64,000 bases of DNA from Escherichia coli (GTDB taxonomy: Bacteria > Pseudomonadota > Gammaproteobacteria > Enterobacterales > Enterobacteriaceae). Shown here piece after piece: positions 11,859-54,391 of this stretch. The notes under the pieces were generated by a model, which worked only from the letters and a program-made list of their open reading frames with translations, had not been told where the DNA came from and ran no database searches. Location of the stretch: NCBI RefSeq assembly GCF_044324785.1, contig NZ_CP172127.1. The stretch is one strand, 5' to 3'. Each line of letters opens with the position of its first letter. The first letter of the stretch is position 1. The translations under genes were made by a program, and so were the position numbers.

Positions 11859-11902
11859 GCTCCGTTTAACATTCATTGAGAAAACTGATGCTACTGTGTC
11901 AA

Positions 11903-12001
11903 CGATCCGTTATCAGTGCAGGAAAATGCCTGTTAGCGTAAAAGCAAAACACAAATCTATCCATGCAAGCATTCACCGCCGGTTTACTGGCGGTTTTTTT
12001 T
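11903..12001 (+). ncRNA. mgrR: Candidate small RNA in the dgcZ-mgtS intergenic region (position expected for MgrR); boundaries approximate
   Basis: Non-coding stretch ending in a strong intrinsic terminator (caccgccgg-ttta-ctggcggt followed by T8 at 11993-12001). Location divergent from mgtS matches the known mgrR locus. The 5' end is not determined. Confidence 0.45.
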
Positions 12002-12007
12002 CGCCGT

Positions 12008-12049
12008 CATAAAAATCAGGCCCCTTGTACACAACTGTAACAAGGGGCC
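12008..12049 (-). terminator. Terminator hairpin for mgtS
   Basis: ggccccttgtacacaactgtaacaaggggcc hairpin with a flanking A-run on the + strand (T-run for the minus transcript). Confidence 0.5.
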
Positions 12050-12076
12050 GGTTAGGTGAGGGATTATCTCCGTTCA

Positions 12077-12172
12077 TTAGTCATCCCATTTGTGGCTGAA
12101 ATACGCGGCCAGAAAACCAGAAAATAAAATTATTCCCAGTACGGCCATAAAAACATTCATATTACCCAGCAT
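12077..12172 (-). CDS. mgtS: Small inner-membrane protein MgtS (YneM), 31 aa
   Basis: Hand translation of the minus strand gives MLGNMNVFMAVLGIILFSGFLAAYFSHKWDD*. It is below the ORF-track size cutoff; single TM helix. Confidence 0.8.
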   Translation of the reverse strand: MLGNMNVFMAVLGIILFSGFLAAYFSHKWDD

Positions 12173-36691: not shown

Positions 36692-37221
36692 TTTCATTGA
36701 CAGCCACATCATGATGACCGTGGCTGTTAGTTTTTGAGTATTGGTATTCTCATTTCCCATCTTTTAGAGCTGGCTTGTTAAATGCCAGCTTGCAAATTCA
36801 TCGTTCCATCACCAGTACTATATTCAAGTGAAAATTGCTATTTTTCTTAAAGCATTAAGCATAAGCCTTATTTTATAGCGAATATTCCTAAAGGCATTAA
36901 TGGATGAAAAAGGGGTTTAATAAACTTCTTTTTTTAGCAATTAGTGCTATTCTTTGTTAAATATGATGATGATAATCTTCTTATTGAAAGAAACAGTCTT
37001 CTTATTAAGCAACAATAACTCATGGTTCATTTTTAAATAAAATAAGAACTATGCAATTTTTAATCTATCGATTCGAAAGTATTAGCAAATTAGCCAAATT
37101 GACACCTTCCCACCTCCAACCAACACTCAATACAGACCTCTGACAACTTAATAAGTTTCATTTTTAACGTCTGATGACTCATCTCTTTCGTGGCTGTATT
37201 GTTTGTATATGGAGCGTTTAT

Positions 37222-40200
37222 ATGAATAGAATCTATCGCGTGATATGGAATTGCACCCTACAGGTATTTCAGGCCTGCTCGGAATTAACTCGCAGGGTAG
37301 GTAAAACATCGACGGTTAATTTGCATAAATCCTCTGGACTGACAACGAAATTCAGTAGATTGACGCTGGGTGTTTTGCTGGCACTAAGCGGTTCAGTGTC
37401 TGGTGCGAGTCTGGAAGTTGATAATGATCAGATTACCAATATTGATACTGATGTTGCTTATGATGCCTACCTGGTTGGGTGGTATGGCACTGGAGTGCTT
37501 AATATTTTGGCTGGCGGTAATGCCTCCTTAACCACTATTACTACCAGCGTCATTGGTGGTAATGAGAACTCGAAGGGCACCGTTAATGTTTTGGGTGGCA
37601 CCTGGCGATTGTATGATAGCGGAAATAATGCAAGGCCTTTAAATGTGGGTCAATCCGGAACGGGGACGCTGAATATTAAACAGAAGGGTCACGTTGACGG
37701 AGGATATTTAAGGATAGGTTCTTCGACAGGAGGCGTCGGGACGGTCAATGTTGAGGGAGAGGACTCGGTTCTGACGACCGAATTATTCGAAATAGGGAGT
37801 TACGGTACAGGCTCATTAAATATTACGGATAAGGGTTACGTCACGAGTTCAATCGTCGCCATTGTAGGATATCAGGCGAACAGTAATGGTAAGGTTGTCG
37901 TTGAAAAGGGTAGCGAGTGGCTAATAAAAAATAATGATTCCTCAATTGAATTTCAAATTGGTAATCAAGGGACGGGGGAAGCGACTATTCGCGATGGGGG
38001 GCTAATTACGGCTGAAAATACGATTACCGGTGGCAATGCCACCGGTATCGGAACCCTGAATGTGCAGGATCAAGACTCTGTCATCACGGTACGCAGACTC
38101 TATAATGGATATTTCGGTAATGGCACAGTCAATATTTCCAATAATGGACTGATTAATAATAAAGAATATTCATTGGTGGGCGTTCAGGACGGGTCCCACG
38201 GTGTCGTCAACGTGACCGATAAAGGGCATTGGAATTTCCTCGGAACGGGCGAAGCTTTCCGCTATATCTATGTTGGTGATGCTGGCGACGGTGAACTTAA
38301 TGTCTCGAGTGAAGGCAAAGTAGATTCGGGAATTATCACTGCGGGGATGAAAGAAACAGGCACAGGCAACATTACTGTTAAGGATAAGAACTCCGTTATC
38401 ACTAATCTCGGAACTAATCTTGGTTATGACGGCCACGGCGAAATGAATATCAGTAATGAGGGGCTTGTTGTCAGCAACGGAGGAAGCTCACTCGGTTATG
38501 GAGAAACCGGCGTCGGGAAGGTTAGCATCACCACGGGGGGGATGTGGGAGGTCAATAAGAATGTCTATACCACTATTGGTGTTGCGGGCGTCGGAAACCT
38601 CAATATCAGCGATGGCGGTAAGTTCGTATCGCAAAATATTACTTTTTTGGGCGATAAAGCAAGCGGTATCGGCACACTGAACCTGATGGATGCGACATCA
38701 TCGTTCGATACTGTGGGTATTAATGTCGGTAATTTTGGTAGCGGTATCGTAAATGTCAGTAATGGTGCCACCCTTAATTCAACGGGCTATGGATTTATCG
38801 GAGGAAATGCCTCCGGTAAGGGGATAGTTAATATTTCAACGGATAGTCTCTGGAATTTAAAGACATCATCTACTAACGCACAATTGCTACAGGTCGGTGT
38901 ATTAGGCGCGGGTGAACTGAATATTACCACCGGAGGTATAGTTAAAGCGCGTGATACACAAATAGCTCTCAATGACAAAAGTAAGGGCGACGTGCGGGTG
39001 GATGGGCAGAACTCTCTTCTTGAAACATTCAATATGAACGTAGGGACGACAGGCACGGGTACGTTAACCCTGACGAATAACGGCACGTTGAATGTCGAAG
39101 GTGGAGAAGTTTACTTAGGTGTTTTTGAACCTGCTGTAGGAACGCTAAACATTGGTGCTGCTCACGGTGAGGCGGCGGCAGATGCCGGGTTTATCACCAA
39201 TGCGACGAAAGTGGAGTTTGGTCTTGGCGAAGGCGTTTTTGTCTTTAATCATACCAATAACAGTGATGCCGGCTACCAGGTCGATATGCTGATTACGGGT
39301 GACGATAAAGACGGAAAAGTGATGCATGATGCAGGCCATACGGTGTTCAATGCAGGGAATACTTATAGCGGTAAAACGCTGGTCAATGACGGCCTCCTGA
39401 CTATTGCGTCACATACGGCAGATGGGGTAACGGGCATGGGATCGAGTGAAGTCACCATTGCAAACCCCGGTACGCTCGACATTCTCGCATCAACGAACAG
39501 TGCAGGAGATTACACGCTGACCAATGCGCTCAAAGGCGATGGCTTGATGCGAGTGCAGCTGTCATCCTCCGACAAAATGTTTGGCTTTACCCATGCAATA
39601 GGAACTGAATTCGCCGGTGTTGCCCAACTGAAAGACAGTACCTTCACACTGGAACGCGACAACACCGCTGCGCTTACTCACGCGATGCTGCAGTCTGACA
39701 GTGAAAATACCACATCGGTAAAAGTGGGAGAGCAATCCATTGGTGGACTAGCCATGAATGGCGGTACGCTCACTTTCGATACGGATATACCTGCTGCGAC
39801 GCTTGCGGAGGGATATATCAGCGTCGATACGCTGGTTGTCGGCACGGGTGACTACACCTGGAAAGGCCGTAACTATCAGGTAAACGGGATGGGCGACGTG
39901 CTTATCGACGTGCCTAAACCGTGGAATGATCCCATGGCGAATAACCCTCTGACGACGCTCAATTTGCTGGAACACGATGATAGTCATGTCGGCGTTCAAC
40001 TGGTGAAGGCGCAAATGGTTATTGGGTCGGGTGGCTCATTAACGTTACGTGATTTACAGGGCGACGAGGTGGAAGCGGACAAAACGTTACATATTGCACA
40101 AAACGGGACAGTGGTCGCCGAGGGTGATTATGGATTCCGCCTCACGACCGCACCTGGTGATGGTTTGTATGTTAACTATGGGCTGAAAGCGCTGAACATC

Positions 40201-42642
40201 CATGGTGGGCAAAAGCTGACGTTAGCCGAACATGGCGGAGCCTATGGCGCAACGGCCGATATGTCGGCAAAAATCGGTGGTGAAGGGGATCTGGCAATCA
40301 ATACGGTGCGACAGGTTTCGCTTTCCAACGGTCAGAACGACTATCAGGGGGCAACCTACGTTCAGATGGGGACATTACGTACCGATGCGGATGGCGCGCT
40401 GGGCAATACTCGGGAACTAAACATCAGCAACGCGGCCATCGTCGATCTTAATGGATCGGCCCAGACGGTAGAGACATTCACCGGGCTGATGGGTTCGACT
40501 GTTTTGTTTAAAGAGGGGTCGCTGACGGTGAATAAAGGTGGGATCAGTCAGGGCGAACTGACAGGTGGCGGAAACCTGAATGTTACAGGGGGAACGCTGG
40601 CTATCGAGGGGCTTAATGCACGCTACAATGCCTTAACCAGCATTAGCTCAAATGCGGAAGTCAGCCTCGATAATACGCAGGGGTTAGGCAGAGGAAATAT
40701 TGCCAATGACGGTCTGTTAACGCTAAAAAACGTGACCGGCGAACTGCGTAATAGCATAAGCGGGAAGGGTATCGTGAGCGCAACCGCCAGGACAGACGTA
40801 GAGCTGGATGGCGATAATAGCCGCTTTGTGGGGCAATTCAACATTGATACAGGCAGCGCGCTCAGCGTCAACGAGCAGAAAAACCTGGGTGATGCTTCCG
40901 TTATCAATAATGGCCTGCTCACCATCTCCACTGAGCGTAGCTGGGCGATGACGCACAGTATCAGCGGTAGCGGTGATGTGACAAAACTGGGTACCGGGAG
41001 CCTGACTCTTAACAACGATTCCGCGGCGTATCAGGGTACGACGGATATCGTGGGTGGTGAAATTGCTTTCGGTTCCGACTCTGCCATTAATATGGCAAGT
41101 CAGCACATTAATATCCATAACAGCGGTGTGATGTCGGGAAATGTCACCACTGCAGGTGATGTGAACGTTATGCTAGGGGGGACACTGCGTGTCGCCAAAA
41201 CCACTATCGGCGGCAATCTGGAGAATGGTGGCACGGTTCAAATGAATAGCGAAGGGGGGAAACCGGGGAATGTGCTGACCGTTAACGGCAACTATACCGG
41301 AAACAATGGCCTGATGACGTTCAACGCGACGCTGGGCGGAGATAATTCACCCACGGATAAAATGAACGTGAAAGGCGATACCCAAGGGAACACTCGCGTT
41401 CGGGTTGATAACATTGGCGGCGTCGGTGCACAAACGGTCAACGGTATTGAACTCATTGAGGTCGGCGGTAATTCTGCAGGTAACTTCGCGCTGACCACCG
41501 GAACTGTCGAAGCTGGGGCTTACGTCTACACGCTGGCTAAAGGGAAGGGGAATGACGAGAAAAACTGGTATCTGACCAGTAAATGGGACGGCGTAACGCC
41601 AGCGGATACACCCGATCCCATCAATAATCCCCCTGTTGTGGATCCGGAAGGCCCATCAGTTTATCGCCCGGAGGCCGGAAGCTATATCAGCAACATTGCC
41701 GCAGCCAACTCGCTGTTTAGCCATCGCTTACACGACCGTCTGGGTGAGCCGCAGTATACAGATTCACTGCGAGTTCAGGGTTCGGCAAGCAGTATGTGGA
41801 TGCGTCATGTCGGGGGGCACGAACGTTTCAGGACCGGTGACGGCCAGCTAAATACTCAGGCTAACCGCTATGTATTGCAGCTAGGAGGCGATTTGGCGCA
41901 GTGGAGTAGCAACGCGCAGGATCGCTGGCATCTTGGCGTGATGGCAGGCTACGCCAATCAGCACAGTAATACTCAGAGTAATCGTGTGGGTTATAAATCG
42001 GATGGGCGCATCAGCGGTTACAGCGCAGGACTGTACGCGACCTGGTATCAGAACGATGCGAATAAGACCGGCGCTTATGTTGACAGCTGGGCGCTGTATA
42101 ACTGGTTTGATAACAGCGTCAGTTCCGATAACCGCTCGGCTGACGACTATGATTCTCGCGGTGTGACGGCCTCTGTTGAGGGTGGGTATACCTTTGAAGC
42201 GGGAACATTTAGCGGCAGCGAAGGGGCGCTGAATACCTGGTACGTCCAGCCACAGGTACAAATCACCTGGATGGGTGTGAAAGATTCTGACCATACCCGG
42301 AAAGACGGAACACGCATTGAAACAGAAGGCGACGGAAACGTGCAAACGCGGCTTGGGGTGAAAACCTACCTGAACAGTCATCACCAGCGTGACAATGGTA
42401 AACAGCGTGAGTTCCAGCCTTACATTGAAGCGAACTGGATCAACAACAGCAAAGTCTACGCCGTGAAGATGAATGGTCAAACCGTAAGCCGTGATGGTGC
42501 GCGTAATCTCGGTGAAGTACGTACCGGGGTTGAGGCGAAAGTAAATCACAACCTTAGCCTGTGGGGGAATGTCGGTGTGCAACTAGGTGATAAAGGCTAT
42601 AGCGATACTCAGGGCATGCTGGGTGTGAAATATAGCTGGTAA
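37222..42642 (+). CDS. yneO: Large AIDA-I-type autotransporter adhesin (type Va secretion)
   Basis: Start taken at MNRIYRVIWNCTLQVF, an extended autotransporter signal peptide, with GGAG at 37211-37214. Long beta-helical passenger with repeated GxGTLNI/GxGxLNV motifs; C-terminal beta-barrel ending ...GMLGVKYSW. One continuous ORF of about 1,806 aa from this start. Confidence 0.85.
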   Translation: MNRIYRVIWNCTLQVFQACSELTRRVGKTSTVNLHKSSGLTTKFSRLTLGVLLALSGSVSGASLEVDNDQITNIDTDVAYDAYLVGWYGTGVLNILAGGNASLTTITTSVIGGNENSKGTVNVLGGTWRLYDSGNNARPLNVGQSGTGTLNIKQKGHVDGGYLRIGSSTGGVGTVNVEGEDSVLTTELFEIGSYGTGSLNITDKGYVTSSIVAIVGYQANSNGKVVVEKGSEWLIKNNDSSIEFQIGNQGTGEATIRDGGLITAENTITGGNATGIGTLNVQDQDSVITVRRLYNGYFGNGTVNISNNGLINNKEYSLVGVQDGSHGVVNVTDKGHWNFLGTGEAFRYIYVGDAGDGELNVSSEGKVDSGIITAGMKETGTGNITVKDKNSVITNLGTNLGYDGHGEMNISNEGLVVSNGGSSLGYGETGVGKVSITTGGMWEVNKNVYTTIGVAGVGNLNISDGGKFVSQNITFLGDKASGIGTLNLMDATSSFDTVGINVGNFGSGIVNVSNGATLNSTGYGFIGGNASGKGIVNISTDSLWNLKTSSTNAQLLQVGVLGAGELNITTGGIVKARDTQIALNDKSKGDVRVDGQNSLLETFNMNVGTTGTGTLTLTNNGTLNVEGGEVYLGVFEPAVGTLNIGAAHGEAAADAGFITNATKVEFGLGEGVFVFNHTNNSDAGYQVDMLITGDDKDGKVMHDAGHTVFNAGNTYSGKTLVNDGLLTIASHTADGVTGMGSSEVTIANPGTLDILASTNSAGDYTLTNALKGDGLMRVQLSSSDKMFGFTHAIGTEFAGVAQLKDSTFTLERDNTAALTHAMLQSDSENTTSVKVGEQSIGGLAMNGGTLTFDTDIPAATLAEGYISVDTLVVGTGDYTWKGRNYQVNGMGDVLIDVPKPWNDPMANNPLTTLNLLEHDDSHVGVQLVKAQMVIGSGGSLTLRDLQGDEVEADKTLHIAQNGTVVAEGDYGFRLTTAPGDGLYVNYGLKALNIHGGQKLTLAEHGGAYGATADMSAKIGGEGDLAINTVRQVSLSNGQNDYQGATYVQMGTLRTDADGALGNTRELNISNAAIVDLNGSAQTVETFTGLMGSTVLFKEGSLTVNKGGISQGELTGGGNLNVTGGTLAIEGLNARYNALTSISSNAEVSLDNTQGLGRGNIANDGLLTLKNVTGELRNSISGKGIVSATARTDVELDGDNSRFVGQFNIDTGSALSVNEQKNLGDASVINNGLLTISTERSWAMTHSISGSGDVTKLGTGSLTLNNDSAAYQGTTDIVGGEIAFGSDSAINMASQHINIHNSGVMSGNVTTAGDVNVMLGGTLRVAKTTIGGNLENGGTVQMNSEGGKPGNVLTVNGNYTGNNGLMTFNATLGGDNSPTDKMNVKGDTQGNTRVRVDNIGGVGAQTVNGIELIEVGGNSAGNFALTTGTVEAGAYVYTLAKGKGNDEKNWYLTSKWDGVTPADTPDPINNPPVVDPEGPSVYRPEAGSYISNIAAANSLFSHRLHDRLGEPQYTDSLRVQGSASSMWMRHVGGHERFRTGDGQLNTQANRYVLQLGGDLAQWSSNAQDRWHLGVMAGYANQHSNTQSNRVGYKSDGRISGYSAGLYATWYQNDANKTGAYVDSWALYNWFDNSVSSDNRSADDYDSRGVTASVEGGYTFEAGTFSGSEGALNTWYVQPQVQITWMGVKDSDHTRKDGTRIETEGDGNVQTRLGVKTYLNSHHQRDNGKQREFQPYIEANWINNSKVYAVKMNGQTVSRDGARNLGEVRTGVEAKVNHNLSLWGNVGVQLGDKGYSDTQGMLGVKYSW

Positions 42643-42852: not shown

Positions 42853-43119
42853 ATGATGAGCTTTCAGAAGATCTATAGCCCAACGCAATTAGCGAATGCA
42901 ATGAAACTGGTTCGCCAGCAAAATGGCTGGACGCAGAGCGAGCTGGCGAAAAAAATTGGCATTAAGCAGGCGACAATTTCCAATTTCGAAAACAACCCTG
43001 ACAATACCACGCTGACGACCTTTTTTAAGATTTTACAGTCGCTTGAACTCTCAATGACACTATGCGACACGAAAAATGCCTCGCCAGAATCAACAGAACA
43101 GCAAGATCTGGAGTGGTAA
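42853..43119 (+). CDS. hipB: HipB antitoxin (Xre/Cro-type HTH)
   Basis: 88 aa, MMSFQKIYSPTQLANAMKLVRQQNGWTQSELAKKIGIKQATISNFE...; its stop overlaps the hipA start by 1 bp. Confidence 0.9.
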   Translation: MMSFQKIYSPTQLANAMKLVRQQNGWTQSELAKKIGIKQATISNFENNPDNTTLTTFFKILQSLELSMTLCDTKNASPESTEQQDLEW

Positions 43120-44441
43120 TGCCCAAACTTGTCACTTGGATGAACAACCAGCGGGTAGGCGAGTTAACGAAGTTAGCCAACGGCGCGCACACCTTTAAGT
43201 ATGCACCGGAGTGGTTAGCCAGCCGTTATGCCAGACCGTTGTCACTTTCGCTGCCATTGCAGAGGGGGAATATCACCTCTGATGCCGTATTTAACTTCTT
43301 CGATAACCTGTTACCCGATAGCCCGATTGTACGTGACCGGATCGTTAAACGCTATCATGCCAAATCCAGACAACCGTTTGATTTATTGTCAGAAATAGGG
43401 CGAGACAGCGTTGGTGCCGTGACGTTAATACCCGAAGACGAAACCGTAACGCATCCGATAATGGCATGGGAAAAGCTTACTGAAGCCAGACTTGAAGAAG
43501 TATTAACGGCTTATAAAGCAGATATCCCGCTAGGCATGATTAGAGAAGAAAATGACTTTCGCATCTCGGTTGCTGGCGCACAGGAGAAGACAGCACTGCT
43601 CAGAATAGGCAATGACTGGTGCATTCCGAAAGGAATAACGCCGACGACGCACATCATTAAATTACCGATTGGCCAAATCAGGCAGCCCAATGCGACGCTC
43701 GATCTCAGCCAAAGCGTTGATAATGAGTATTACTGTCTGCTGCTGGCGAAAGAACTTGGGTTGAATGTTCCGGACGCAGAAATCATTAAAGCGGGAAGGG
43801 TGCGCGCGTTAGCGGTCGAACGTTTTGACAGGCGTTGGAATGCTGAGCGAACGGTTTTACTTCGCTTGCCACAGGAGGATATGTGTCAGACATTCGGTTT
43901 ACCTTCATCGGTGAAATATGAATCAGATGGAGGCCCAGGCATCGCGCGGATCATGGCTTTTTTGATGGGGTCCAGCGAGGCGCTGAAAGATCGCTATGAT
44001 TTTATGAAGTTTCAGGTGTTCCAGTGGTTGATTGGCGCAACGGATGGCCATGCAAAAAACTTCTCCGTATTTATTCAGGCTGGCGGCAGTTATCGACTCA
44101 CGCCATTTTACGACATCATTTCAGCATTTCCGGTATTGGGTGGCGCAGGAATACACATCAGCGATCTCAAACTGGCAATGGGGCTTAACGCATCCAAAGG
44201 CAAAAAAACGGCAATCGATAAAATTTATCCGCGACATTTTCTGGCGACAGCAAAGTTGCTGAAATTTCCGGAAGTGCAGATGCATGAAATCCTGAGTGAC
44301 TTTGCCAGAATGATTCCGGCAGCACTGGATAACGTGAAGACTTCATTACCGACAGATTTTCCGGAGAACGTGGTGACGGCAGTTGAAACCAATGTGTTGA
44401 GGTTGCACCGTCGGTTAAGCCGAGAATACGGTATTAAGTAA
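43119..44441 (+). CDS. hipA: HipA serine/threonine kinase toxin
   Basis: 440 aa from MPKLVTWMNNQRVGELTKLANGAHTFKYAPEWLA; HipA N- and C-terminal kinase domains. Confidence 0.9.
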   Translation: MPKLVTWMNNQRVGELTKLANGAHTFKYAPEWLASRYARPLSLSLPLQRGNITSDAVFNFFDNLLPDSPIVRDRIVKRYHAKSRQPFDLLSEIGRDSVGAVTLIPEDETVTHPIMAWEKLTEARLEEVLTAYKADIPLGMIREENDFRISVAGAQEKTALLRIGNDWCIPKGITPTTHIIKLPIGQIRQPNATLDLSQSVDNEYYCLLLAKELGLNVPDAEIIKAGRVRALAVERFDRRWNAERTVLLRLPQEDMCQTFGLPSSVKYESDGGPGIARIMAFLMGSSEALKDRYDFMKFQVFQWLIGATDGHAKNFSVFIQAGGSYRLTPFYDIISAFPVLGGAGIHISDLKLAMGLNASKGKKTAIDKIYPRHFLATAKLLKFPEVQMHEILSDFARMIPAALDNVKTSLPTDFPENVVTAVETNVLRLHRRLSREYGIK

Positions 44442-44721
44442 GATATGGGGTTTGGTCGTTGTTAATGAGCACGACAATCATGACCGCCAACGACTGGATT
44501 CTTCCTTGGTTTATGTTGGTGCGCATAATGTATATTATGTTAAATGGAGTTTGAGTGATGCGGAGTGATTTTCCGGTCGTCGTTATTACTTCAGGGTTCC
44601 AGAACATAAAGCCTCTCCTCTTTCATAATTGGCCTGTGCATACCGGATATAGCCTGGCTGATATGCAGGTTTGCCGTTTGCCGCATCTTCTCAGCGTTGA
44701 AGAGTCAGGCTGGCAAACCGC

Positions 44722-44976
44722 GTGCAAATGAACCCCCCCTCTTTCCATCAACACTTCAGACAGCTTGCGGGAATGAGTCCACTCCGGTATCAGAAATGGC
44801 TACGCCTCAATGAAGCCAGGCGACTGATGCTGAATGAACATTACGATGTCACCACTGCAGCCTATGCTGTCGGTTACGAAAGCTTATCCCATTTCAGTCG
44901 GGAATATTCGCGGATGTTTGGAGAGTCACCTAAGAGAGATATTACCAGGTTAAGAAAGTCTGTCGGTCAGCTTTAA
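44722..44976 (+). pseudogene. yneL: AraC-family regulator fragment (C-terminal HTH only)
   Basis: 84-aa ORF containing only the second AraC HTH (..AAYAVGYESLSHFSREYSRMFGESP..); no ligand-binding or dimerisation domain upstream. Confidence 0.55.
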
Positions 44977-45409
44977 TAAACCCTGCACTTATCTGTTTAG
45001 AGCAATTCCGTGTTAGTTACACCAGGCAAACATTAACTATAGCTAATGATTTATAGCCATATAAACCATTAGTCGCTCTTGACCTTTCCTGACACTTCCC
45101 TTGTTCGCAATAATATTCTGTTTAGTCGCTGTTTATAAATATCATGCATAATGAAATCGTCATGTTATTTAGCGACATAAAATGTTTTTGCAAATACTCT
45201 CTACAACAAGTGCTGCAATAAACTTGTTGTGATTAGGTGTCCTTGTAATTTAAAGATATTATCGTTCTTCGTGAAATGTAATAACCCTGGAAACTATATT
45301 CTCAGGGCAACAACCAATTAAGAATGATTCTTGTTTTATAAGCAATAACAGAATGACTTAATTGTTAACTCTCTTTATTCAGCTACTTAAATATAAATTT
45401 TGGAGAATT

Positions 45410-45973
45410 ATGAAACTCAAACATGTCGGTATGATTGTCGTTTCTGTGTTGGCGATGTCGTCTGCTGCGGTAAGCGCAGCCGAGGGTGATGAATCAGTAA
45501 CGACCACTGTTAATGGCGGTGTTATTCATTTTAAAGGTGAAGTGGTAAATGCCGCTTGTGCGATTGATTCAGAATCAATGAACCAAACGGTTGAGCTGGG
45601 TCAGGTCCGTTCTTCTCGTCTGGCTAAAGCGGGTGACCTCAGCTCCGCCGTTGGCTTCAATATCAAGCTGAATGATTGTGATACCAATGTTTCCAGTAAT
45701 GCAGCTGTTGCATTCCTGGGTACTACTGTCACCAGTAATGACGACACATTAGCGCTGCAGAGTTCAGCGGCAGGCTCTGCCCAAAATGTCGGTATTCAAA
45801 TTTTGGACCGTACGGGCGAGGTATTAATACTTGATGGTGCCACTTTCAGCGCTAAAACTGACTTGATTGATGGCACGAATATACTGCCGTTCCAGGCTCG
45901 TTATATTGCTCTCGGGCAGTCAGTAGCTGGTACTGCAAACGCTGATGCGACCTTCAAAGTTCAATATCTATAA
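45410..45973 (+). CDS. Fimbrial major subunit (FimA-like pilin) of an F9/Yde-type chaperone-usher operon
   Basis: [23 protein letters not shown] signal peptide, GGAG ribosome-binding site at 45402-45405, conserved pilin Cys pair, C-terminal ...FKVQYL. Confidence 0.8.
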
Positions 45974-46326
45974 TTCAATCTTAAGGTGGCTATACGTCAT
46001 CTGAAATTGAAACAGGGTGTGTGTGGCATGGCTACGCACACCCGAGAAATTCACCAATGTTCATCTCATTATTAATGAGGAATAGTTTGTGTTTTGGAGC
46101 GGTATGAAAAAATCACATAATATCTAAACGTTCAATAAACAACAGTAGTTAAACTTACTGTTATTTAGAGTATTTACTTTATAGCAAGGTTTTCCTATTA
46201 AAAGAGAACCAACATTTATTTCAAACGCATTAAGTCTGGAAACCCGGCGACTCGCCAATGTATTAGCAACATTTACCGATTGTCTGATGTAACGGTTTCC
46301 CCGCTTATCCTCTTAACACATGGAGA

Positions 46327-47046
46327 ATGCATCAGATGCAAACTACGCGTACCCCCTACTCTGTTTCCTTTATGGCGACAGTGTTACTTTTATTGGTCTT
46401 TGCTTGCCATAGCACCATTGCCAACGCAGCTGTCGCACTGGGTGCGACGCGGGTAATTTATCCGGCAAACCAGAAACAGGTTTTATTGCCTGTCACGAAT
46501 AATGATCCTGCCAGTGTCTATCTCATTCAGTCATGGATAGAAAATGCAGGTGACCAAAAAGACACCCAGTTTGTCATTACCCCACCGCTTTTTTCCATGC
46601 AAGGTAAAAAAGAGAATACGCTGCGGATAATCAACGCCACTAATCATCAGTTACCAGGCGACCGTGAAAGCCTGTTCTGGGTTAATGTTAAAGCTATTCC
46701 TGCTATGGAAAAAGACCAGAAGAATGAGAATACATTACAGCTGGCAATTATTAGCCGCATAAAAATGTTTTATCGCCCCACGAACCTGGCAATGGCACCT
46801 GAAGAAGCGCCTGCAATGCTTCGGTTTCGTCGCAGCGGCAGCAAACTCACTCTTATTAATCCAACGCCCTACTTCATTACCGTAACAAATATGAAAGCAG
46901 GAAATAGCAATCTCCCAAACACCATGGTGCCGCCAAAAGGTGAAGTATCGGTGGATATCCCGCATGCTGCAACCGGGGATATCAGTTTTCAGACGATCAA
47001 TGATTACGGTGCATTAACTCCGCGTATTAAGGCAACCATGCAGTAA
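46327..47046 (+). CDS. Periplasmic fimbrial chaperone (PapD/FimC-like)
   Basis: 239-aa ORF with a signal peptide and PapD-like fold signatures; the true start may be an internal Met. Confidence 0.8.
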   Translation: MHQMQTTRTPYSVSFMATVLLLLVFACHSTIANAAVALGATRVIYPANQKQVLLPVTNNDPASVYLIQSWIENAGDQKDTQFVITPPLFSMQGKKENTLRIINATNHQLPGDRESLFWVNVKAIPAMEKDQKNENTLQLAIISRIKMFYRPTNLAMAPEEAPAMLRFRRSGSKLTLINPTPYFITVTNMKAGNSNLPNTMVPPKGEVSVDIPHAATGDISFQTINDYGALTPRIKATMQ

Positions 47047-47087
47047 GCCAGTGACCTAATTAATAATAAACTCAATCGGAATCAATA

Positions 47088-49739
47088 ATGACATCCTTTC
47101 GTGCCGCATTTAAGGCATATCGTATGCATCAGGTGTTACTACTGCCTCGCTTTGCACGGCTTACCATTGCCCTTGGCTTAGCAACTGCGGTTTTTCCCGT
47201 TGACGCAGAGTATTATTTTAATCCACGGTTTTTAAGCAATGATCTTGCTGAATCTGTCGATTTATCCGCCTTTACTAAGGGACGCGAGGCACCACCTGGT
47301 ACATATCGGGTCGACATTTATTTGAACGACGAATTTATGACTAGTCGGGATATTACTTTTATTGCAGATGATAATAACGCAGATCTCATCCCATGCCTGA
47401 GTACAGATCTTCTTGTCAGTCTTGGCATAAAAAAATCAGCGTTATTAGACAATAAAGAACATTCGGCAGAAAAACATGTGCCGGACAACAGCGCATGCAC
47501 ACCACTTCAGGATCGTTTGGCCGACGCATCAACTGAGTTTGATGTTGGTCAGCAACATCTGTCACTCTCCGTTCCGCAAATTTATGTTGGCAGAATGGCT
47601 CGCGGCTATGTTTCTCCTGATCTGTGGGAAGAAGGAATAAATGCTGGGCTGCTAAACTATAGTTTTAATGGTAATTCTATTAATAATCGTAGTAACCATA
47701 ATGCAGGAAAATCCAACTATGCATATTTGAATTTACAGAGTGGCATCAACATTGGTAGTTGGCGACTGCGCGATAACTCAACGTGGAGTTATAACAGTGG
47801 GAGTAGCAATTCATCTGACAGCAATAAATGGCAGCATATCAATACGTCGGCTGAACGTGACATTATTCCCTTACGCTCACGCTTAACGGTAGGTGATAGT
47901 TATACCGATGGCGATATTTTTGATAGTGTGAACTTTCGTGGCCTCAAAATAAATTCAACAGAAGCGATGTTGCCCGATAGCCAACATGGTTTCGCTCCGG
48001 TGATTCATGGTATTGCCCGCGGCACCGCACAAGTGAGTGTAAAACAGAATGGATACGATGTTTATCAGACTACTGTCCCACCCGGCCCTTTTACTATTGA
48101 TGATATCAACTCTGCGGCCAATGGTGGTGATCTGCAAGTAACCATAAAAGAGGCAGACGGCAGTATTCAGACATTATATGTTCCTTATTCGTCTGTTCCG
48201 GTTCTCCAACGTGCTGGATATACGCGTTATGCGCTTGCCATGGGGGAATATCGTAGTGGAAATAACCTGCAAAGCTCCCCCAAGTTCATACAAGGTAGCT
48301 TGATGCATGGACTGGAAGGAAACTGGACACCTTATGGCGGAATGCAAATTGCAGAAGATTATCAGGCCTTCAACCTTGGTATTGGTAAAGATTTAGGACT
48401 TTTTGGTGCCTTTTCTTTCGATATCACGCAGGCCAATACGACACTTGCAGATGGCACCCGTCACAGCGGGCAATCGATTAAATCCGTCTACAGCAAATCC
48501 TTCTACCAGACGGGAACCAATATCCAGGTCGCAGGATATCGCTATTCTACGCAAGGTTTTTATAACTTATCCGACAGTGCCTACAGTCGAATGAGTGGTT
48601 ACACCGTCAAGCCTCCTACCGGAGACAGCAACGAGCAGACACAATTTATTGATTATTTTAATCTGTTCTACAGTAAGCGTGGTCAGGAACAAATAAGCAT
48701 CTCTCAGCAGCTTGGAAATTACGGTACGACATTTTTCAGTGCCAGTCGCCAAAGTTACTGGAACACGTCACGCAGCGACCAGCAAATATCATTTGGATTA
48801 AATGTGCCGTTTGGTGATATTACGACTTCGCTGAATTACAGCTTTTCCAATAATATATGGCAAAACGATCGGGATCATTTACTTGCTTTTACGCTTAATG
48901 TTCCCTTCAGTCATTGGATGCGTACAGACAGTCAGTCGGCATTTCGTAATTCAAACGCCAGTTACAGTATGTCAAACGATTTGAAAGGCGGCATGACCAA
49001 TCTATCAGGGGTTTATGGCACTCTGCTGCCGGATAATAACCTGAATTATAGCGTTCAGGTAGGTAACACCCACGGAGGTAATACATCGTCTGCCACCAGT
49101 GGTTACAGTTCTCTTAATTATCGTGGAGCTTACGGTAATACGAATGTCGGTTACAGTCGGAGTGGGGACAGCAGCCAGATTTATTACGGAATGAGTGGTG
49201 GGATTATTGCTCATGCTGATGGCATCACCTTTGGTCAGCCGCTGGGCGACACAATGGTTCTGGTTAAGGCTCCTGGCGCTGATAATGTCAAAATAGAGAA
49301 CCAGACCGGTATTCATACCGACTGGCGTGGCTATGCCATATTACCATTTGCGACAGAATATAGAGAAAATCGTGTCGCTCTTAACGCGAATTCCCTTGCA
49401 GATAATGTTGAACTGGATGAAACAGTAGTCACTGTCATCCCAACTCACGGTGCTATTGCCAGAGCAACATTTAATGCACAAATCGGCGGGAAAGTATTAA
49501 TGACGTTGAAGTACGGTAATAAGAGCGTTCCATTCGGTGCAATTGTCACACACGGAGAGAATAAAAATGGCAGCATTGTCGCGGAAAACGGTCAGGTTTA
49601 TCTGACTGGACTTCCACAGTCAGGGAAATTACAGGTTTCATGGGGCAAAGATAAAAACTCAAACTGTATTGTCGAGTACAAGCTTCCTGAAGTTTCTCCT
49701 GGTACCTTACTGAACCAGCAGACAGCAATCTGTCGCTAA
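47088..49739 (+). CDS. ydeT: Outer-membrane fimbrial usher (FimD/PapC-like), full length
   Basis: 883-aa ORF with usher N-terminal, barrel, plug and C-terminal domains. Confidence 0.85.
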   Translation: MTSFRAAFKAYRMHQVLLLPRFARLTIALGLATAVFPVDAEYYFNPRFLSNDLAESVDLSAFTKGREAPPGTYRVDIYLNDEFMTSRDITFIADDNNADLIPCLSTDLLVSLGIKKSALLDNKEHSAEKHVPDNSACTPLQDRLADASTEFDVGQQHLSLSVPQIYVGRMARGYVSPDLWEEGINAGLLNYSFNGNSINNRSNHNAGKSNYAYLNLQSGINIGSWRLRDNSTWSYNSGSSNSSDSNKWQHINTSAERDIIPLRSRLTVGDSYTDGDIFDSVNFRGLKINSTEAMLPDSQHGFAPVIHGIARGTAQVSVKQNGYDVYQTTVPPGPFTIDDINSAANGGDLQVTIKEADGSIQTLYVPYSSVPVLQRAGYTRYALAMGEYRSGNNLQSSPKFIQGSLMHGLEGNWTPYGGMQIAEDYQAFNLGIGKDLGLFGAFSFDITQANTTLADGTRHSGQSIKSVYSKSFYQTGTNIQVAGYRYSTQGFYNLSDSAYSRMSGYTVKPPTGDSNEQTQFIDYFNLFYSKRGQEQISISQQLGNYGTTFFSASRQSYWNTSRSDQQISFGLNVPFGDITTSLNYSFSNNIWQNDRDHLLAFTLNVPFSHWMRTDSQSAFRNSNASYSMSNDLKGGMTNLSGVYGTLLPDNNLNYSVQVGNTHGGNTSSATSGYSSLNYRGAYGNTNVGYSRSGDSSQIYYGMSGGIIAHADGITFGQPLGDTMVLVKAPGADNVKIENQTGIHTDWRGYAILPFATEYRENRVALNANSLADNVELDETVVTVIPTHGAIARATFNAQIGGKVLMTLKYGNKSVPFGAIVTHGENKNGSIVAENGQVYLTGLPQSGKLQVSWGKDKNSNCIVEYKLPEVSPGTLLNQQTAICR

Positions 49740-49752
49740 GGAACAAGAGATT

Positions 49753-50283
49753 ATGAAATACAATAACATTATTTTCCTCGGTTTATGTCTGGGGTTAACC
49801 ACCTATTCTGCTTTATCCGCAGATAGCGTTATTAAAATTAGCGGGCGCGTCCTCGATTATGGCTGCACAGTCTCATCGGATTCGCTTAATTTTACCGTAG
49901 ATCTCCAAAAAAACAGTGCCAGACAATTTCCAACGACCGGTAGCACAAGTCCAGCCGTCCCTTTTCAGATTACGTTAAGTGAATGCAGTAAAGGGACTAC
50001 GGGGGTTCGGGTTGCATTTAACGGTATTGAGGATGCAGAAAATAATACTCTGTTGAAACTGGATGAAGGAAGCAATACGGCCTCCGGTTTGGGTATAGAA
50101 ATACTGGACGGAAATATGCGTCCGGTGAAATTGAATGACCTTCATGCCGGGATGCAGTGGATCCCACTGGTACCAGAACAGAACAATATTTTGCCTTACT
50201 CCGCTCGTCTGAAGTCAACTCAGAAGTCCGTCAATCCGGGACTGGTGAGGGCTTCGGCAACCTTTACCCTTGAATTTCAATAA
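49753..50283 (+). CDS. ydeS: Fimbrial minor subunit (FimF-like)
   Basis: 176-aa pilin-like ORF with a signal peptide. Confidence 0.8.
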   Translation: MKYNNIIFLGLCLGLTTYSALSADSVIKISGRVLDYGCTVSSDSLNFTVDLQKNSARQFPTTGSTSPAVPFQITLSECSKGTTGVRVAFNGIEDAENNTLLKLDEGSNTASGLGIEILDGNMRPVKLNDLHAGMQWIPLVPEQNNILPYSARLKSTQKSVNPGLVRASATFTLEFQ

Positions 50284-50295
50284 TCAGAGTCAGAT

Positions 50296-50799
50296 ATGAA
50301 AAGACTTCACAAGAGGTTCCTGTTAGCTACGTTTTGCGCGTTATTCACAGCAACTCTCCAGGCCGCCGATGTCACTATCACTGTTAATGGTCGGGTAGTC
50401 GCTAAACCCTGCACTATTCAAACCAAAGAAGCTAACGTTAATCTCGGGGATCTTTATACGCGCAATCTGCAACAACCTGGTTCTGCATCAGGGTGGCACA
50501 ATATTACTTTGTCATTAACCGATTGTCCGGTTGAAACAAGTGCAGTGACGGCAATCGTGACAGGTTCAACTGACAATACGGGTTATTACAAAAATGAAGG
50601 TACTGCCGAAAATATTCAGATAGAGCTAAGGGATGACCAGGATGCGACGTTAAAAAATGGCGATAGCAAAACGGTTATTGTTGATGAGATCACTCGTAAT
50701 GCACAGTTTCCACTTAAGGCAAGAGCTATCACGGTGAATGGAAACGCAAGCCAGGGAACGATCGAGGCGCTAATCAATGTGATCTACACCTGGCAATAA
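50296..50799 (+). CDS. ydeR: Fimbrial minor subunit (FimG-like)
   Basis: 167-aa pilin-like ORF with a signal peptide. Confidence 0.8.
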   Translation: MKRLHKRFLLATFCALFTATLQAADVTITVNGRVVAKPCTIQTKEANVNLGDLYTRNLQQPGSASGWHNITLSLTDCPVETSAVTAIVTGSTDNTGYYKNEGTAENIQIELRDDQDATLKNGDSKTVIVDEITRNAQFPLKARAITVNGNASQGTIEALINVIYTWQ

Positions 50800-50858
50800 C
50801 GTCGATTCGATTTTCTTAGCCTCCTTTTTAAATCAATTTTTTAACCTTAGGATATATC

Positions 50859-51773
50859 ATGGGTAAAACAATAAGTATGAAGCTTCTGTTCGGTATTTAT
50901 CTTCTATTAATGGCAGGCAAAGTTTTTGCCTTCAGTTGTAATGTCGATGGCGGGTCAAGTATTGGAGCAGGTACAACCTCTGTTTATGTTAATCTCGACC
51001 CTGTAATACAACCGGGCCAGAATCTGGTTGTAGACTTGTCTCAACATATCAGTTGCTGGAATGATTACGGCGGCTGGTACGACACTGATCATATAAACCT
51101 GGTACAAGGCTCAGCTTTCGCAGGCTCTCTACAGTCATATAAAGGATCGCTGTACTGGAATAATGTGACCTACCCCTTCCCGTTGACGACAAATACTAAT
51201 GTATTAGATATTGGTGATAAGACACCGATGCCATTACCGTTAAAACTCTATATTACCCCAGTCGGGGCGGCCGGTGGAGTTGTCATAAAAGCCGGGGAAG
51301 TTATTGCCCGTATTCATATGTATAAAATTGCCACGTTAGGAAGCGGAAATCCGCGTAATTTTACGTGGAATATTATTTCAAATAACAGTGTTGTTATGCC
51401 AACAGGCGGCTGCACTGTTGATAGTCGTAATGTCACCGTGAATCTCCCGGACTTTCCTGGAAGCGCAGAAATACCCCTTGGCGTATATTGCTCAAGCGAA
51501 CAAAAGCTCTCATTTTATCTTTCGGGTGCCACCACTGACAGTGCCCGACAAGTGTTTGCTAACACAGCACCAGATGCAACAAAAGCATCGGGAGTGGGTG
51601 TCTCTCTGATGCGTAATGGAAAAATACTGGCTACGGGAGAAAACGTCTCCCTGGGGACAGTAAATAAAAGCAAAGTACCTCTGGGTTTAAGCGCAACCTA
51701 TGGACAAACAGGAAACAAGGTTGCAGCCGGAACAGTTCAGTCAGTCATTGGTGTCACTTTTATCTATGAATAA
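50859..51773 (+). CDS. ydeQ: Fimbrial tip adhesin (FimH-like two-domain adhesin)
   Basis: 304-aa ORF; N-terminal lectin-like domain ([14 protein letters not shown]...[20 protein letters not shown]) plus a pilin domain. Confidence 0.8.
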
Positions 51774-51846
51774 TTGTGATTTTGACATTAGTCTATGCGT
51801 TCCATTCACGAAAATTGTGCGGATAATTATTTTGTGAAGGCTATTA

Positions 51847-51863
51847 TCCTACACTTGTAAGAA
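51847..51863 (+). promoter_or_regulatory. EvgA-box-like inverted repeat upstream of ydeP
   Basis: TCCTACA-CT-TGTAAGAA, matching the EvgA consensus (TTCYTACA...TGTARGAA), about 250 bp upstream of ydeP. Confidence 0.6.
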
Positions 51864-52111
51864 AATCCGCGCACAATTGAAGCCAGAGTCTTATTTTTTA
51901 TATTGAAAAACATGTTAATTTAAACACTATGAGAGATGATGCTTAACTTATCGTATTTATACCATTCTATTATTTAACGATAATAGATTAAAAATAGAAA
52001 GAGAGTAGTCCCCTACTCTTATATATCCAGGTTGATGATAAACCTATTATATATACTGTGCATCATCGCTATTACAAATCCTAATAATTCATTTCCACAC
52101 AGGATAAGCAG

Positions 52112-54391
52112 ATGAAGAAAAAAATTGAATCCTACCAGGGAGCTGCCGGTGGTTGGGGTGCTGTTAAATCCGTAGCAAATGCAGTACGTAAGCAGATGGA
52201 TATACGCCAGGATGTTATTGCCATGTTTGACATGAATAAGCCAGAGGGCTTTGACTGTCCGGGATGTGCATGGCCAGATCCTAAGCACAGTGCGTCATTC
52301 GACATTTGTGAAAACGGCGCAAAAGCAATCGCCTGGGAAGTCACGGATAAGCAGGTAAATGCCTCTTTCTTTGCTGAGAATACGGTTCAATCATTACTTA
52401 CCTGGGGAGATCACGAGCTTGAGGCTGCGGGGCGTCTCACTCAGCCTTTGAAATATGATGCCGTCAGCGACTGTTACAAGCCATTAAGCTGGCAACAAGC
52501 TTTCGACGAAATAGGCGCACGCCTTCAAAGCTATAGTGATCCCAATCAGGTTGAATTCTATACTTCGGGCCGCACTTCCAATGAAGCAGCCTTTCTTTAT
52601 CAGCTTTTTGCCCGTGAATACGGGAGCAATAACTTTCCCGACTGTTCCAACATGTGCCATGAACCGACCAGCGTGGGATTGGCAGCGAGTATCGGTGTAG
52701 GTAAAGGGACCGTGTTGCTGGAAGACTTTGAGAAATGCGATTTAGTCATTTGCATTGGGCATAACCCTGGTACAAACCACCCTCGCATGTTGACTTCGTT
52801 GCGCGCTTTAGTGAAACGGGGAGCGAAAATGATCGCCATCAATCCTCTACAGGAACGTGGCCTGGAGCGATTTACCGCACCGCAAAACCCGTTTGAAATG
52901 CTGACGAACTCTGAGACTCAGTTGGCCAGTGCCTACTACAACGTGCGCATTGGTGGTGATATGGCGTTGCTCAAGGGGATGATGCGCCTGTTAATTGAGC
53001 GCGATGATGCTGCAAGCGCCGCAGGTCGGCCCTCATTGCTTGATGACGAATTTATTCAAACGCATACCGTCGGCTTTGACGAGCTACGCCGTGACGTTCT
53101 CAATTCCGAGTGGAAAGATATCGAACGTATTTCTGGACTAAGTCAGACACAAATCGCCGAACTGGCTGATGCATATGCCGCTGCCGAACGCACCATTATC
53201 TGTTACGGAATGGGGATCACTCAGCACGAACATGGTACCCAGAATGTACAGCAACTGGTCAATCTGCTGTTGATGAAAGGTAACATTGGCAAGCCTGGTG
53301 CGGGTATCTGCCCACTACGAGGTCACTCTAATGTACAGGGCGACCGAACCGTCGGTATCACCGAGAAACCGTCTGCAGAGTTTCTGGCTCGCCTGGGTGA
53401 GCGCTATGGTTTCACCCCACCTCATGCACCTGGACATGCTGCAATTGCCAGCATGCAAGCAATATGTACGGGGCAGGCTCGAGCATTGATCTGCATGGGG
53501 GGCAACTTTGCACTGGCAATGCCAGATCGGGAAGCGAGCGCTGTACCGTTAACGCAATTAGATTTGGCGGTACACGTAGCCACTAAGCTTAACCGCTCTC
53601 ATCTGCTGACCGCACAGCATAGCTATATTCTGCCGGTTCTTGGGCGTAGCGAGATTGACATGCAAAAAAGCGGTGCGCAGGCGGTAACCGTTGAGGATTC
53701 AATGTCGATGATTCATGCCTCGCGTGGCGTGTTAAAACCCGCCGGTGTAATGCTGAAATCAGAGTGTGCAGTGGTCGCGGGAATCGCGCAGGCAGCACTA
53801 CCCCAGAGCGTGGTAGCCTGGGAGTATCTGGTGGAAGATTATGATCGCATTCGCAATGACATTGAAGCTGTGCTGCCAGAGTTCGCCGACTATAACCAGC
53901 GCATCCGACATCCTGGAGGTTTTCACCTGATAAACGCAGCTGCTGAAAGGCGCTGGAGGACGTCGTCAGGTAAGGCTAATTTCATTACCAGTAAAGGGCT
54001 GTTAGAAGATCCCTCTTCAGCGTTTAACAGTAAGCTAGTCATGGCGACAGTACGCAGTCACGATCAGTACAACACGACGATTTATGGTATGGATGATCGC
54101 TATCGAGGGGTATTCGGTCAACGAGATGTGGTCTTTATGAGTGCTAAACAAGCTAAAATTTGCCGTGTAAAAAACGGCGAAAGAGTTAATCTTATTGCGC
54201 TTACGCCAGACGGTAAGCGAAGCTCACGCCGCATGGATAGATTAAAAGTGGTCATTTACCCTATGGCTGACCGCTCACTGGTGACCTATTTTCCAGAATC
54301 GAATCACATGCTAACACTTGATAACCACGATCCATTAAGTGGCATTCCTGGCTATAAAAGTATTCCGGTTGAATTAGAACCATCAAATTAA
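52112..54391 (+). CDS. ydeP: Molybdopterin-dependent oxidoreductase (formate dehydrogenase-like), acid-resistance protein
   Basis: 759-aa ORF with an N-terminal Cys cluster (CPGCAW) and molybdopterin oxidoreductase domains. Confidence 0.85.

Follow-up and report, generated by a model that had tools for sequence, protein, structure and literature searches.

The region at positions 45410-51773 of the window (the whole 64,000-nt stretch of Escherichia coli DNA analysed here) raises the question of which chaperone-usher fimbriae it encodes, and whether it is the intact form of a locus that is broken in K-12. The reference set for comparison consisted of CFT073, an O157:H7 genome (F6667) and two other strains. 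The F9 operon of CFT073 (c1931-c1936) has been cloned and experimentally characterised (PMC3966885). The data showed six co-oriented, uninterrupted genes on the plus strand, which encode a major pilin, a chaperone, an usher, two minor subunits and a two-domain tip adhesin:

45410-45973, + strand: F9 major pilin gene (fmlA; automatic RefSeq label 'fimA'), 187 aa, FimA-type model matched over the full length
46336-47046, + strand: F9 periplasmic chaperone gene, 236 aa, PapD_N and PapD_C domains
47088-49739, + strand: F9 outer-membrane usher gene, full length, 883 aa, PapC_N 43-195, Usher 213-795, PapC_C 804-868
49753-50283, + strand: ydeS, FimF-like adaptor subunit, 176 aa, 239 bits on the FimF model
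50296-50799, + strand: ydeR, FimG-like adaptor subunit, 167 aa, 256.6 bits on the FimG model
50859-51773, + strand: ydeQ, FmlH tip adhesin, 304 aa, lectin domain 25-184, pilin domain 185-304

The list of open reading frames and the base-level comparison both gave zero internal stops in the six frames, and the check for frameshifts and stops at base and protein level against CFT073, O157:H7 and the two other strains found none. The gene order is that published for F9 (PMC3966885), and the lengths of all six proteins equal those of the CFT073 and O157:H7 counterparts, with amino-acid identities of 97.8-100%. The usher differs from that of CFT073 by 19 amino acids and each of the other proteins by 2-6. 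The complete six-gene operon and the full-length 883-aa usher proposed in an earlier note on this DNA are thus both borne out, the usher having all three of its domains and the same length as in CFT073. The tight spacing described there holds for the gaps of 12-59 nt, but not for the pilin and chaperone genes, which are 362 nt apart. No sequence evidence against F9 identity was seen; as the earlier note had proposed, the closest homologues belong to F9 and not to another fimbrial family. The region shares with CFT073 F9 its gene order, gene lengths, chromosomal position, promoter and lectin domain, and differs from it in allelic substitutions only (2-19 per protein), in one promoter-spacer base and in having the other 5′ flank. 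Judged from its sequence, 45410-51773 (+) is almost certainly an intact allele of the E. coli F9 (Fml/Yde) chaperone-usher fimbrial operon. This adhesive-pilus operon is already known and well studied, and the feature found here is an ordinary one.

The major pilin has the same sequence as its F6667 and Z0117 counterparts (100% identity), while its identity to that of CFT073 is 98.4%. The identity to the references is 98.9-100% for YdeS (100% to O157:H7 F6667) and 98.8-99.4% for YdeR, while against the CFT073, O157 and Z0117 proteins it is 97.9-98.7% for the chaperone and 97.8-99.5% for the usher, which also aligns with FimD over residues 18-883. The pilin subunits have a signal peptide (judged by eye, without a prediction tool), an N-terminal extension and the conserved disulphide cysteines, while the two-domain adhesin is without the extension; an alignment showed that the cysteines and the C-terminal strand are shared by the three pilins and the pilin domain of the adhesin. 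The chaperone gene could also start at ATG 46327, which would give a 239-aa protein. Its most likely start is ATG 46336, because this is the RefSeq start in other strains, and because GGAG is located 10 nt upstream of it, as compared to 1 nt before ATG 46327. The best solved relative of the chaperone is FimC (299 bits), and the alignment of the two showed that the sequences 'GATRVIYP' and 'NVKAIP' are conserved. These motifs presumably hold the residues corresponding to R8 and K112 of FimC, the arginine and lysine that anchor the subunit. The GC content of the coding part is 0.43-0.47.

The adhesin, which contains the Pfam domains FimH_man-bind and Fimbrial, is identical over residues 25-184 (100%) to the lectin domain in PDB entries 6AOW ('F9 pilus adhesin FmlH') and 5LNE. 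The match to FimH is clearly a more remote one, with 277 bits over a longer alignment as compared to 362 bits. The residues of the galactoside pocket, F1, Y46, D53, K132, N140 and R142, which are listed as ligand contacts of FmlH (PMC5866590), are all present. FmlH has been shown to bind the TF and Tn antigens and to play a role in chronic urinary tract infection (PMC5866590), F9 of CFT073 binds Gal(b1-3)GlcNAc (PMC3966885), and F9 of O157 binds xyloglucan. What the region adds to annotation is that this strain has the intact F9 form, and that its adhesin carries exactly the FmlH lectin domain used in drug and vaccine work. Its value as a discovery is small, as F9/Fml fimbriae have already been cloned and imaged, their promoter and their control by H-NS and temperature mapped, their occurrence in E. 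coli surveyed, and crystal structures with ligands and inhibitors obtained.

Upstream of the pilin gene the following elements were assigned:

45123-45159, + strand: f9 promoter, with -35 TAGTCG at 45123-45128, an 18-nt spacer, -10 CATAAT at 45147-45152 and start G 45159
45160-45409, + strand: long, AT-rich 5′ leader; the DNA around it corresponds to the published H-NS-bound region in CFT073

According to 5′-RACE mapping in CFT073 (Wurpel et al. 2014, PMC3966885), transcription starts at a G that lies 251 nt 5′ of the ATG, and the CATAAT and TAGTCG elements before this G are separated by an 18-bp spacer. The spacing is the same in the window, where 45159 plus 251 gives 45410, the pilin ATG, and the promoter differs from that of CFT073 by a single substitution, which is in the spacer. 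A GGAG sequence precedes the pilin ATG, and both the promoter and this ribosome-binding site are conserved across the aligned strains. The GC content of 45000-45499 is 0.348. In CFT073, H-NS was demonstrated to bind an f9 promoter fragment, and F9 is repressed by H-NS, being undetectable at 37°C in the wild type and expressed at 20°C (PMC3966885). A scan of 44400-52200 for promoter consensus sequences gave 16 matches as compared to 18.6 in shuffled sequences, and one for terminator consensus sequences gave 6 as compared to 6.6; the mapped f9 promoter was missed by this generic promoter scan. No convincing terminator was found 3′ of ydeQ (z = -1.0). An Rfam scan of the whole window gave no match in the F9 locus; its sole matches were STnc560 (11870-12083) and IS009 (748-946), both located outside this locus.

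The operon is surrounded by the following features:

42853-43119, + strand: hipB antitoxin gene, 88 aa, collinear with the annotated hipB in W3110 and VCSW5
43119-44441, + strand: hipA toxin kinase gene, 440 aa, annotated in W3110 and VCSW5
44722-44976, + strand: AraC-family HTH remnant, 84 aa, counterpart of the K-12 pseudogene adjoining ydeT
52112-54391: ydeP, in the 3′ flank of the F9 locus

Counting the stop symbol, HipA is identical to the K-12 protein at 433 of 441 positions and to the VCSW5 protein at 436 of 441. The HTH remnant matches only positions ~200-280, the C-terminal HTH, of the models for RhaS, AraC and similar proteins, with scores far below the cut-offs, and RefSeq annotates its counterpart in W3110, O157, Z0117 and VCSW5 as a pseudogene for a 'helix-turn-helix domain-containing protein' that is 'incomplete, missing N-terminus'. 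Hence, the operon does lie directly downstream of an AraC-family remnant and hipBA, as the earlier note had it. The location of the F9 locus between hipBA with the AraC-type remnant on the 5′ side and ydeP on the 3′ side is the published context, which comprises hipBA with a variable regulator remnant 5′ and ydeP 3′ (PMC3966885). The 5′ flank in the window is the version with hipBA and the HTH remnant, while that of CFT073 carries an SDR/LysR/esterase insert.

The same locus in K-12 is represented by ydeT′-ydeS-ydeR-ydeQ. K-12 lacks the sequence corresponding to window positions 45232-48512, as a single 3,281-bp deletion with collinear flanks, which takes away the last part of the leader and the genes for the pilin and the chaperone, along with the 5′ half (1,425 nt) of the usher gene. 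In W3110, a truncated ydeT is accordingly followed by ydeS, ydeR and ydeQ, which agrees with the degeneracy that the earlier note described for K-12 (usher truncated, pilin and chaperone absent). The K-12 remnant retains the f9 promoter and the last 408 usher codons; identity to the window is 97.7-99.4% for these codons and for ydeS, ydeR and ydeQ. Such a clean deletion is consistent with the view that the intact operon is the ancestral form, which was also inferred in the literature. An intact operon could, on the other hand, be a secondary state, brought back or exchanged through homologous recombination with DNA of another lineage. When the locus is compared with any given reference in 500-bp windows, the identity ranges from 95-96% to 99.8-100%, which is a pattern typical of recombining regions, and the 5′ flank varies among strains. 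However, the K-12 state is explained by the one deletion with its collinear flanks, and the intact form predominates and is found in phylogroups B1, B2, D and E, which makes such a replacement unlikely. Even with allelic recombination inside an intact operon, the deleted form would still have to be regarded as younger than the intact one.

The distribution of the F9 locus was analysed across complete E. coli genomes. Of 5,426 such genomes, 3,569 (about two thirds) contained 80% or more of it, in agreement with a survey from 2014, in which F9 was intact in 60% (PMC3966885). The exact usher protein was present in 152 blocks of public assemblies. Four loci were fetched and compared with the window at the DNA level, and three of them were 99.97-99.99% identical and the fourth 99.73%. 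Over 21-25 kb, no identity above ~98.8% was found among the 5,426 complete RefSeq genomes. According to these data, most E. coli carry the intact form; the earlier reading is supported, but everything in it was already in the literature.

We infer expression, assembly and binding in this strain from the literature on characterised F9 fimbriae. Transcription would begin at G 45159, driven by a promoter of the sigma-70 type. The AT-rich region around this promoter would be bound and repressed by H-NS at 37°C, and the fimbriae would be made at about 20°C, as in CFT073. The six products would be exported to the periplasm, where the PapD-type chaperone would cap the pilin subunits by donor-strand complementation. 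The usher would then polymerise them by donor-strand exchange, first FmlH at the tip, then the FimG-like and FimF-like adaptors, and finally the rod of the major pilin. The lectin domain of FmlH is expected to bind terminal beta-galactosides, including Gal(b1-3)GalNAc, Gal(b1-3)GlcNAc, GalNAc and the galactosylated side chains of plant xyloglucan.

Alternatively, the operon could be cryptic or non-functional in this strain, through permanent silencing or a disabling substitution, and be heading to a decay like that in K-12. This would fit with the repression by H-NS, which leaves F9 undetectable at 37°C in wild-type CFT073, with the 19 positions at which the usher differs from that of CFT073, and with the loss of part of the locus in about a third of E. 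coli genomes, which means that selection for F9 is not universal. However, this usher protein recurs without any change in many independent assemblies, both the promoter and the ribosome-binding site show conservation, and nonsense and frameshift mutations are absent from the 6.4 kb. Moreover, O157:H7 F6667 has exactly this pilin and this YdeS (100% identity), and purified O157 F9 fimbriae bind glycans. A cryptic or non-functional operon is considered unlikely.

That the region is, or was copied from, the type 1 (fim) fimbrial operon, as suggested by the automatic labels 'FimA', 'FimF' and 'FimG' in several RefSeq genomes, by the passing of the corresponding NCBIfam cut-offs by the pilin, YdeS and YdeR, and by FimC, FimD and FimH being the nearest solved paralogues, is virtually out of the question, because the chaperone is below the FimC cut-off (257.8 as compared to 327) and the usher below the FimD cut-off (850.4 as compared to 975), the adhesin is identical to FmlH in its lectin domain and clearly diverged from FimH, its pocket is of the galactoside type (Y46, K132, R142), the spacer that separates the pilin gene from the chaperone gene contains only ORFs of up to 58 aa and no fimI-like pilin gene, the upstream side has hipBA and the HTH remnant in place of a fimB/fimE-like recombinase gene, and the chromosomal position is hipBA-ydeP and not the fim locus. 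The three labels on the pilin, ydeS and ydeR genes are misleading. The F9 operon belongs to the same chaperone-usher class as fimAICDFGH and has the same subunit logic, with FimC, FimD, FimF, FimG and FimH as nearest paralogues and an adhesin that aligns with FimH end to end. It differs in being without a fimI-like gene, adjacent fimB/fimE-like genes and a recombinase-associated invertible promoter element like fimS, in having a pocket for galactosides, where that of FimH is for mannose, and in its regulation by H-NS and temperature (in CFT073), where type 1 fimbriae are controlled by a phase switch. A repeat search for a fimS-like invertible element returned only short imperfect inverted repeats, such as 45192-45208 and 46159-46175 (82% over 17 nt), which were set aside, since AT-rich DNA is expected to contain repeats of this quality by chance and recombinase genes are absent from the vicinity.

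The 362-nt spacer between the pilin and chaperone genes (45974-46335) has a folding z of -4.1 as a whole, and it contains the following structure:

46015-46043, + strand: hairpin with a 13-bp stem and a 3-nt loop, 42 nt 3′ of the pilin stop codon

The hairpin has a folding energy of -24.1 kcal/mol (z = -4.6 versus shuffled sequences) and is present in a single copy in the window; it is followed by no U-tract and has no Rfam match. No fimI-like remnant was found in the spacer, which contains only mechanical ORFs of up to 58 aa. The hairpin is invariant in eight of nine strains, and in the ninth, EC1515, a G-to-A change turns a U·G pair into U-A, so that the stem shows one structure-preserving change and zero true compensatory pairs. 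The spacer is less conserved than coding DNA, with 90-95% identity in most genomes as compared to 95-99% for the whole locus, and the hairpin is not the only invariant stretch of its length. Conservation alone thus fails to single out the hairpin, and spacer conservation was rejected as evidence of function. A description of the hairpin was not found in the main paper on F9 regulation. Possibly, although this is doubtful, the spacer with its hairpin is an undescribed post-transcriptional control element of F9, a candidate 3′ stabiliser or partial terminator. In that case, the hairpin would give an abundant pilin-only transcript, which would set the ratio of pilin to assembly machinery. A pilin-only transcript that sets the subunit ratio is known for some other chaperone-usher operons.

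The + strand of the window carries at 45410-51773 six head-to-tail open reading frames, in none of which an internal stop was found. The features of the locus and its flanks are as follows.

Features of the F9 locus and its flanks
42853-43119: hipB, upstream of the F9 genes
43119-44441: hipA, upstream of the F9 genes
44722-44976: AraC-family remnant, an 84-aa ORF whose match to AraC-family regulators is confined to their C-terminal HTH part
45123-45128, + strand: -35 element TAGTCG, same string as in CFT073
45147-45152, + strand: -10 element CATAAT, 18 nt from the -35, same string as in CFT073
45159, + strand: transcription start G (45159 + 251 = 45410, the pilin gene start)
45410-45973, + strand: pilin, 187 aa, FimA-type model (NCBIfam)
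46015-46043: hairpin, 13-bp stem and 3-nt loop, -24.1 kcal/mol, z = -4.6, 42 nt past the pilin stop
46336-47046, + strand: chaperone, 236 aa, frame open from 46327, PapD_N and PapD_C (Pfam)
47088-49739, + strand: usher, 883 aa, PapC_N, Usher and PapC_C (Pfam)
49753-50283, + strand: small pilin 1, FimF-type model (NCBIfam)
50296-50799, + strand: small pilin 2, FimG-type model (NCBIfam)
50859-51773, + strand: two-domain adhesin, 304 aa, FimH-type lectin domain and Fimbrial domain (Pfam)
52112-54391: ydeP, downstream of the F9 genes

The tight spacing described in the earlier note applies to the gaps of 41, 13, 12 and 59 nt, but the pilin and chaperone genes stand 362 nt apart. The chaperone start was taken as 46336, because GGAG lies 10 nt 5′ of this ATG versus only 1 nt 5′ of the ATG at 46327, and because it is the 236-aa form that RefSeq gives for other strains.

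The genes were compared with four reference F9 loci, which were those of CFT073 (c1931-c1936, the cloned and characterized F9 operon), O157:H7 F6667, the dog isolate Z0117EC0056, and the K-12 W3110 remnant. Every gene equaled its reference counterpart in length, and the proteins were 97.8-98.9% identical to those of CFT073, 98.3-100% to O157, and 97.9-100% to Z0117. Frameshifts and stops were sought in this comparison and none were found, which confirms the operon as complete, as first proposed. Residues 25-184 of the adhesin are 100% identical to the lectin domain of FmlH, the adhesin of the F9 pilus, as crystallized (PDB 6AOW plus ten other entries), while FimH of type 1 fimbriae was a more distant full-length match. 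The FmlH ligand contacts F1, D53, K132 and N140, plus Y46 and R142 (PMC5866590), were all found in the window adhesin. Hence, the closest homologs are those of F9, and the data support the reading of the locus as an F9 fimbrial operon, a system already known in detail.

NCBIfam placed the three pilins in FimA-, FimF- and FimG-type models, and these F9 paralogs pass the “equivalog” cut-offs (45410-45973, FimA, 174 > 140 bits; 49753-50283, FimF, 239 > 200; 50296-50799, FimG, 257 > 220). Therefore, RefSeq labels F9 genes fimA, fimF and fimG in many genomes, and this misnaming could lead surveys of type 1 fimbriae astray.

By its identity with characterized F9, the operon is predicted to encode a chaperone-usher pilus; gene content and sequence identity were observed directly, while expression, assembly and binding by this allele are predicted from what is known of characterized F9. 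The chaperone would cap subunits in the periplasm, and the usher would build the pilus from FmlH, the two adaptors (FimG-like and FimF-like) and a rod of major pilin. The ligands of FmlH are terminal galactosides, and the TF and Tn antigens (PMC5866590), Gal(b1-3)GlcNAc (PMC3966885) and galactosylated xyloglucan have each been described as ligands. F9 expression is repressed by H-NS at 37 C and is on at about 20 C (PMC3966885), and F9 pili of UPEC are up-regulated in bladder inflammation (PMC5866590).

The promoter and leader lie outside 45410-51773, the extent first assigned to the operon. In CFT073, 5′-RACE placed the f9 start site at a G 251 nt 5′ of the major-subunit ATG, preceded by the -35 TAGTCG, an 18-bp spacer and the -10 CATAAT, and H-NS binding to this region was demonstrated (Wurpel et al. 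2014, PMC3966885). The CFT073 promoter differs from that of the window by one spacer base, while O157 and K-12 have TAGTCA as the -35. The promoter region is AT-rich (GC 0.348 at 45000-45499). A generic consensus scan missed the mapped promoter, which reflects on the scan and not on the promoter.

Upstream of the operon, hipBA (42853-44441) and the regulator remnant (44722-44976) were seen where the earlier note had placed them, and in other strains the counterparts of the 84-aa ORF are incomplete pseudogenes according to RefSeq. These flanks and ydeP correspond to the published F9 context (PMC3966885); 3′ of ydeP follow safA, ydeO, ydeN, ydeM, yddA and yddB. The segment 44001-44657, covering the hipA 3′ end and the DNA just past it, is only ~93% identical to K-12 and O157, far below neighboring DNA, and no match in K-12 exists for the next ~109 nt (44658-44766), which fits the published variable immediate 5′ flank of f9.

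The degeneracy of the K-12 locus, also part of the original claim and correctly described there, is accounted for by a single 3,281-bp deletion. The W3110 alignment to the window runs up to 45231 and resumes at 48513, with the junction reading ...AACTTGTTGTG|GAACCAATATCC..., so that K-12 has lost the leader end together with the genes for pilin and chaperone and 1,425 nt from the 5′ end of the usher gene. The f9 promoter is retained in K-12: 45123-45231, matching 3609-3717 of the W3110 locus (L001), covers the mapped promoter plus the initial ~70 nt of the leader, joined directly to the truncated usher gene. Therefore, this promoter may still drive transcription of ydeT'-ydeS-ydeR-ydeQ.

Among 5,426 complete E. 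coli genomes searched with 44500-52100, 5,408 gave some match and 3,569 (66%) contained at least 80% of the query in one place. The pilin-chaperone spacer, which K-12-type loci lack, was present in 3,638. The 66% agrees with a published survey, in which 60% of 42 genomes were intact and phylogroup A strains were all disrupted (PMC3966885). The intact form is the majority state in E. coli. Nor is the allele rare, since 152 blocks of the public assembly collection contain the exact 883-aa usher, and three of four fetched loci matched the window at 99.97-99.99% identity across 7.1-8.7 kb (the fourth at 99.73%). Taken per 500 bp along the locus, identity to a given reference strain ranges from 95% to 100%, a mosaic pattern that is usual where E. 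coli DNA recombines. Over 21-25 kb (1-25000 and 42700-64000 tested), the best identity among the 5,426 complete RefSeq genomes did not exceed about 98.8%, and the window lineage seems to be absent from that set; the F9 locus is 99.98% identical in GenBank drafts, e.g., GCA_037485505.1.

The pilin-chaperone spacer (45974-46335) folds more stably than its shuffles (z = -4.1), and its strongest element is the hairpin at 46015-46043, which occurs once in the window and is followed by no U-tract. Its 29 nt are invariant in eight of nine strains, and in EC1515 a G to A change replaces a U.G pair with U-A, which keeps the stem paired. That the hairpin is under selection is only weakly supported, because the spacer is less conserved than coding DNA and the hairpin is not the only invariant run of about this length. 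From the example of other pilus operons, it is plausible that the hairpin works as an mRNA 3′ stabilizer or attenuator fixing the excess of pilin. No element of this kind is mentioned in the main paper on F9 regulation. The Rfam scan gave no match for the hairpin; its only two matches in the window, the Hfq-binding sRNA STnc560 (11870-12083, 282 bits) and the candidate RNA IS009 (748-946, 227 bits), are unrelated to the F9 finding.

Two further genes of the flanks were noted. A very large ECSE_1600-family autotransporter gene at 37174-42642 is intact (1,822-aa ORF, 1,806 aa from the RefSeq start), and its counterparts in K-12 W3110 and O157:H7 F6667 are frameshifted pseudogenes according to RefSeq. 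In yddB (60980-63352), encoding a TonB-dependent receptor, an in-frame TAG at 61943-61945, versus TGG (Trp322) in VCSW5, breaks the 790-aa YddB into two ORFs (321 aa and 467 aa), and this strain's copy of the gene is probably a pseudogene.
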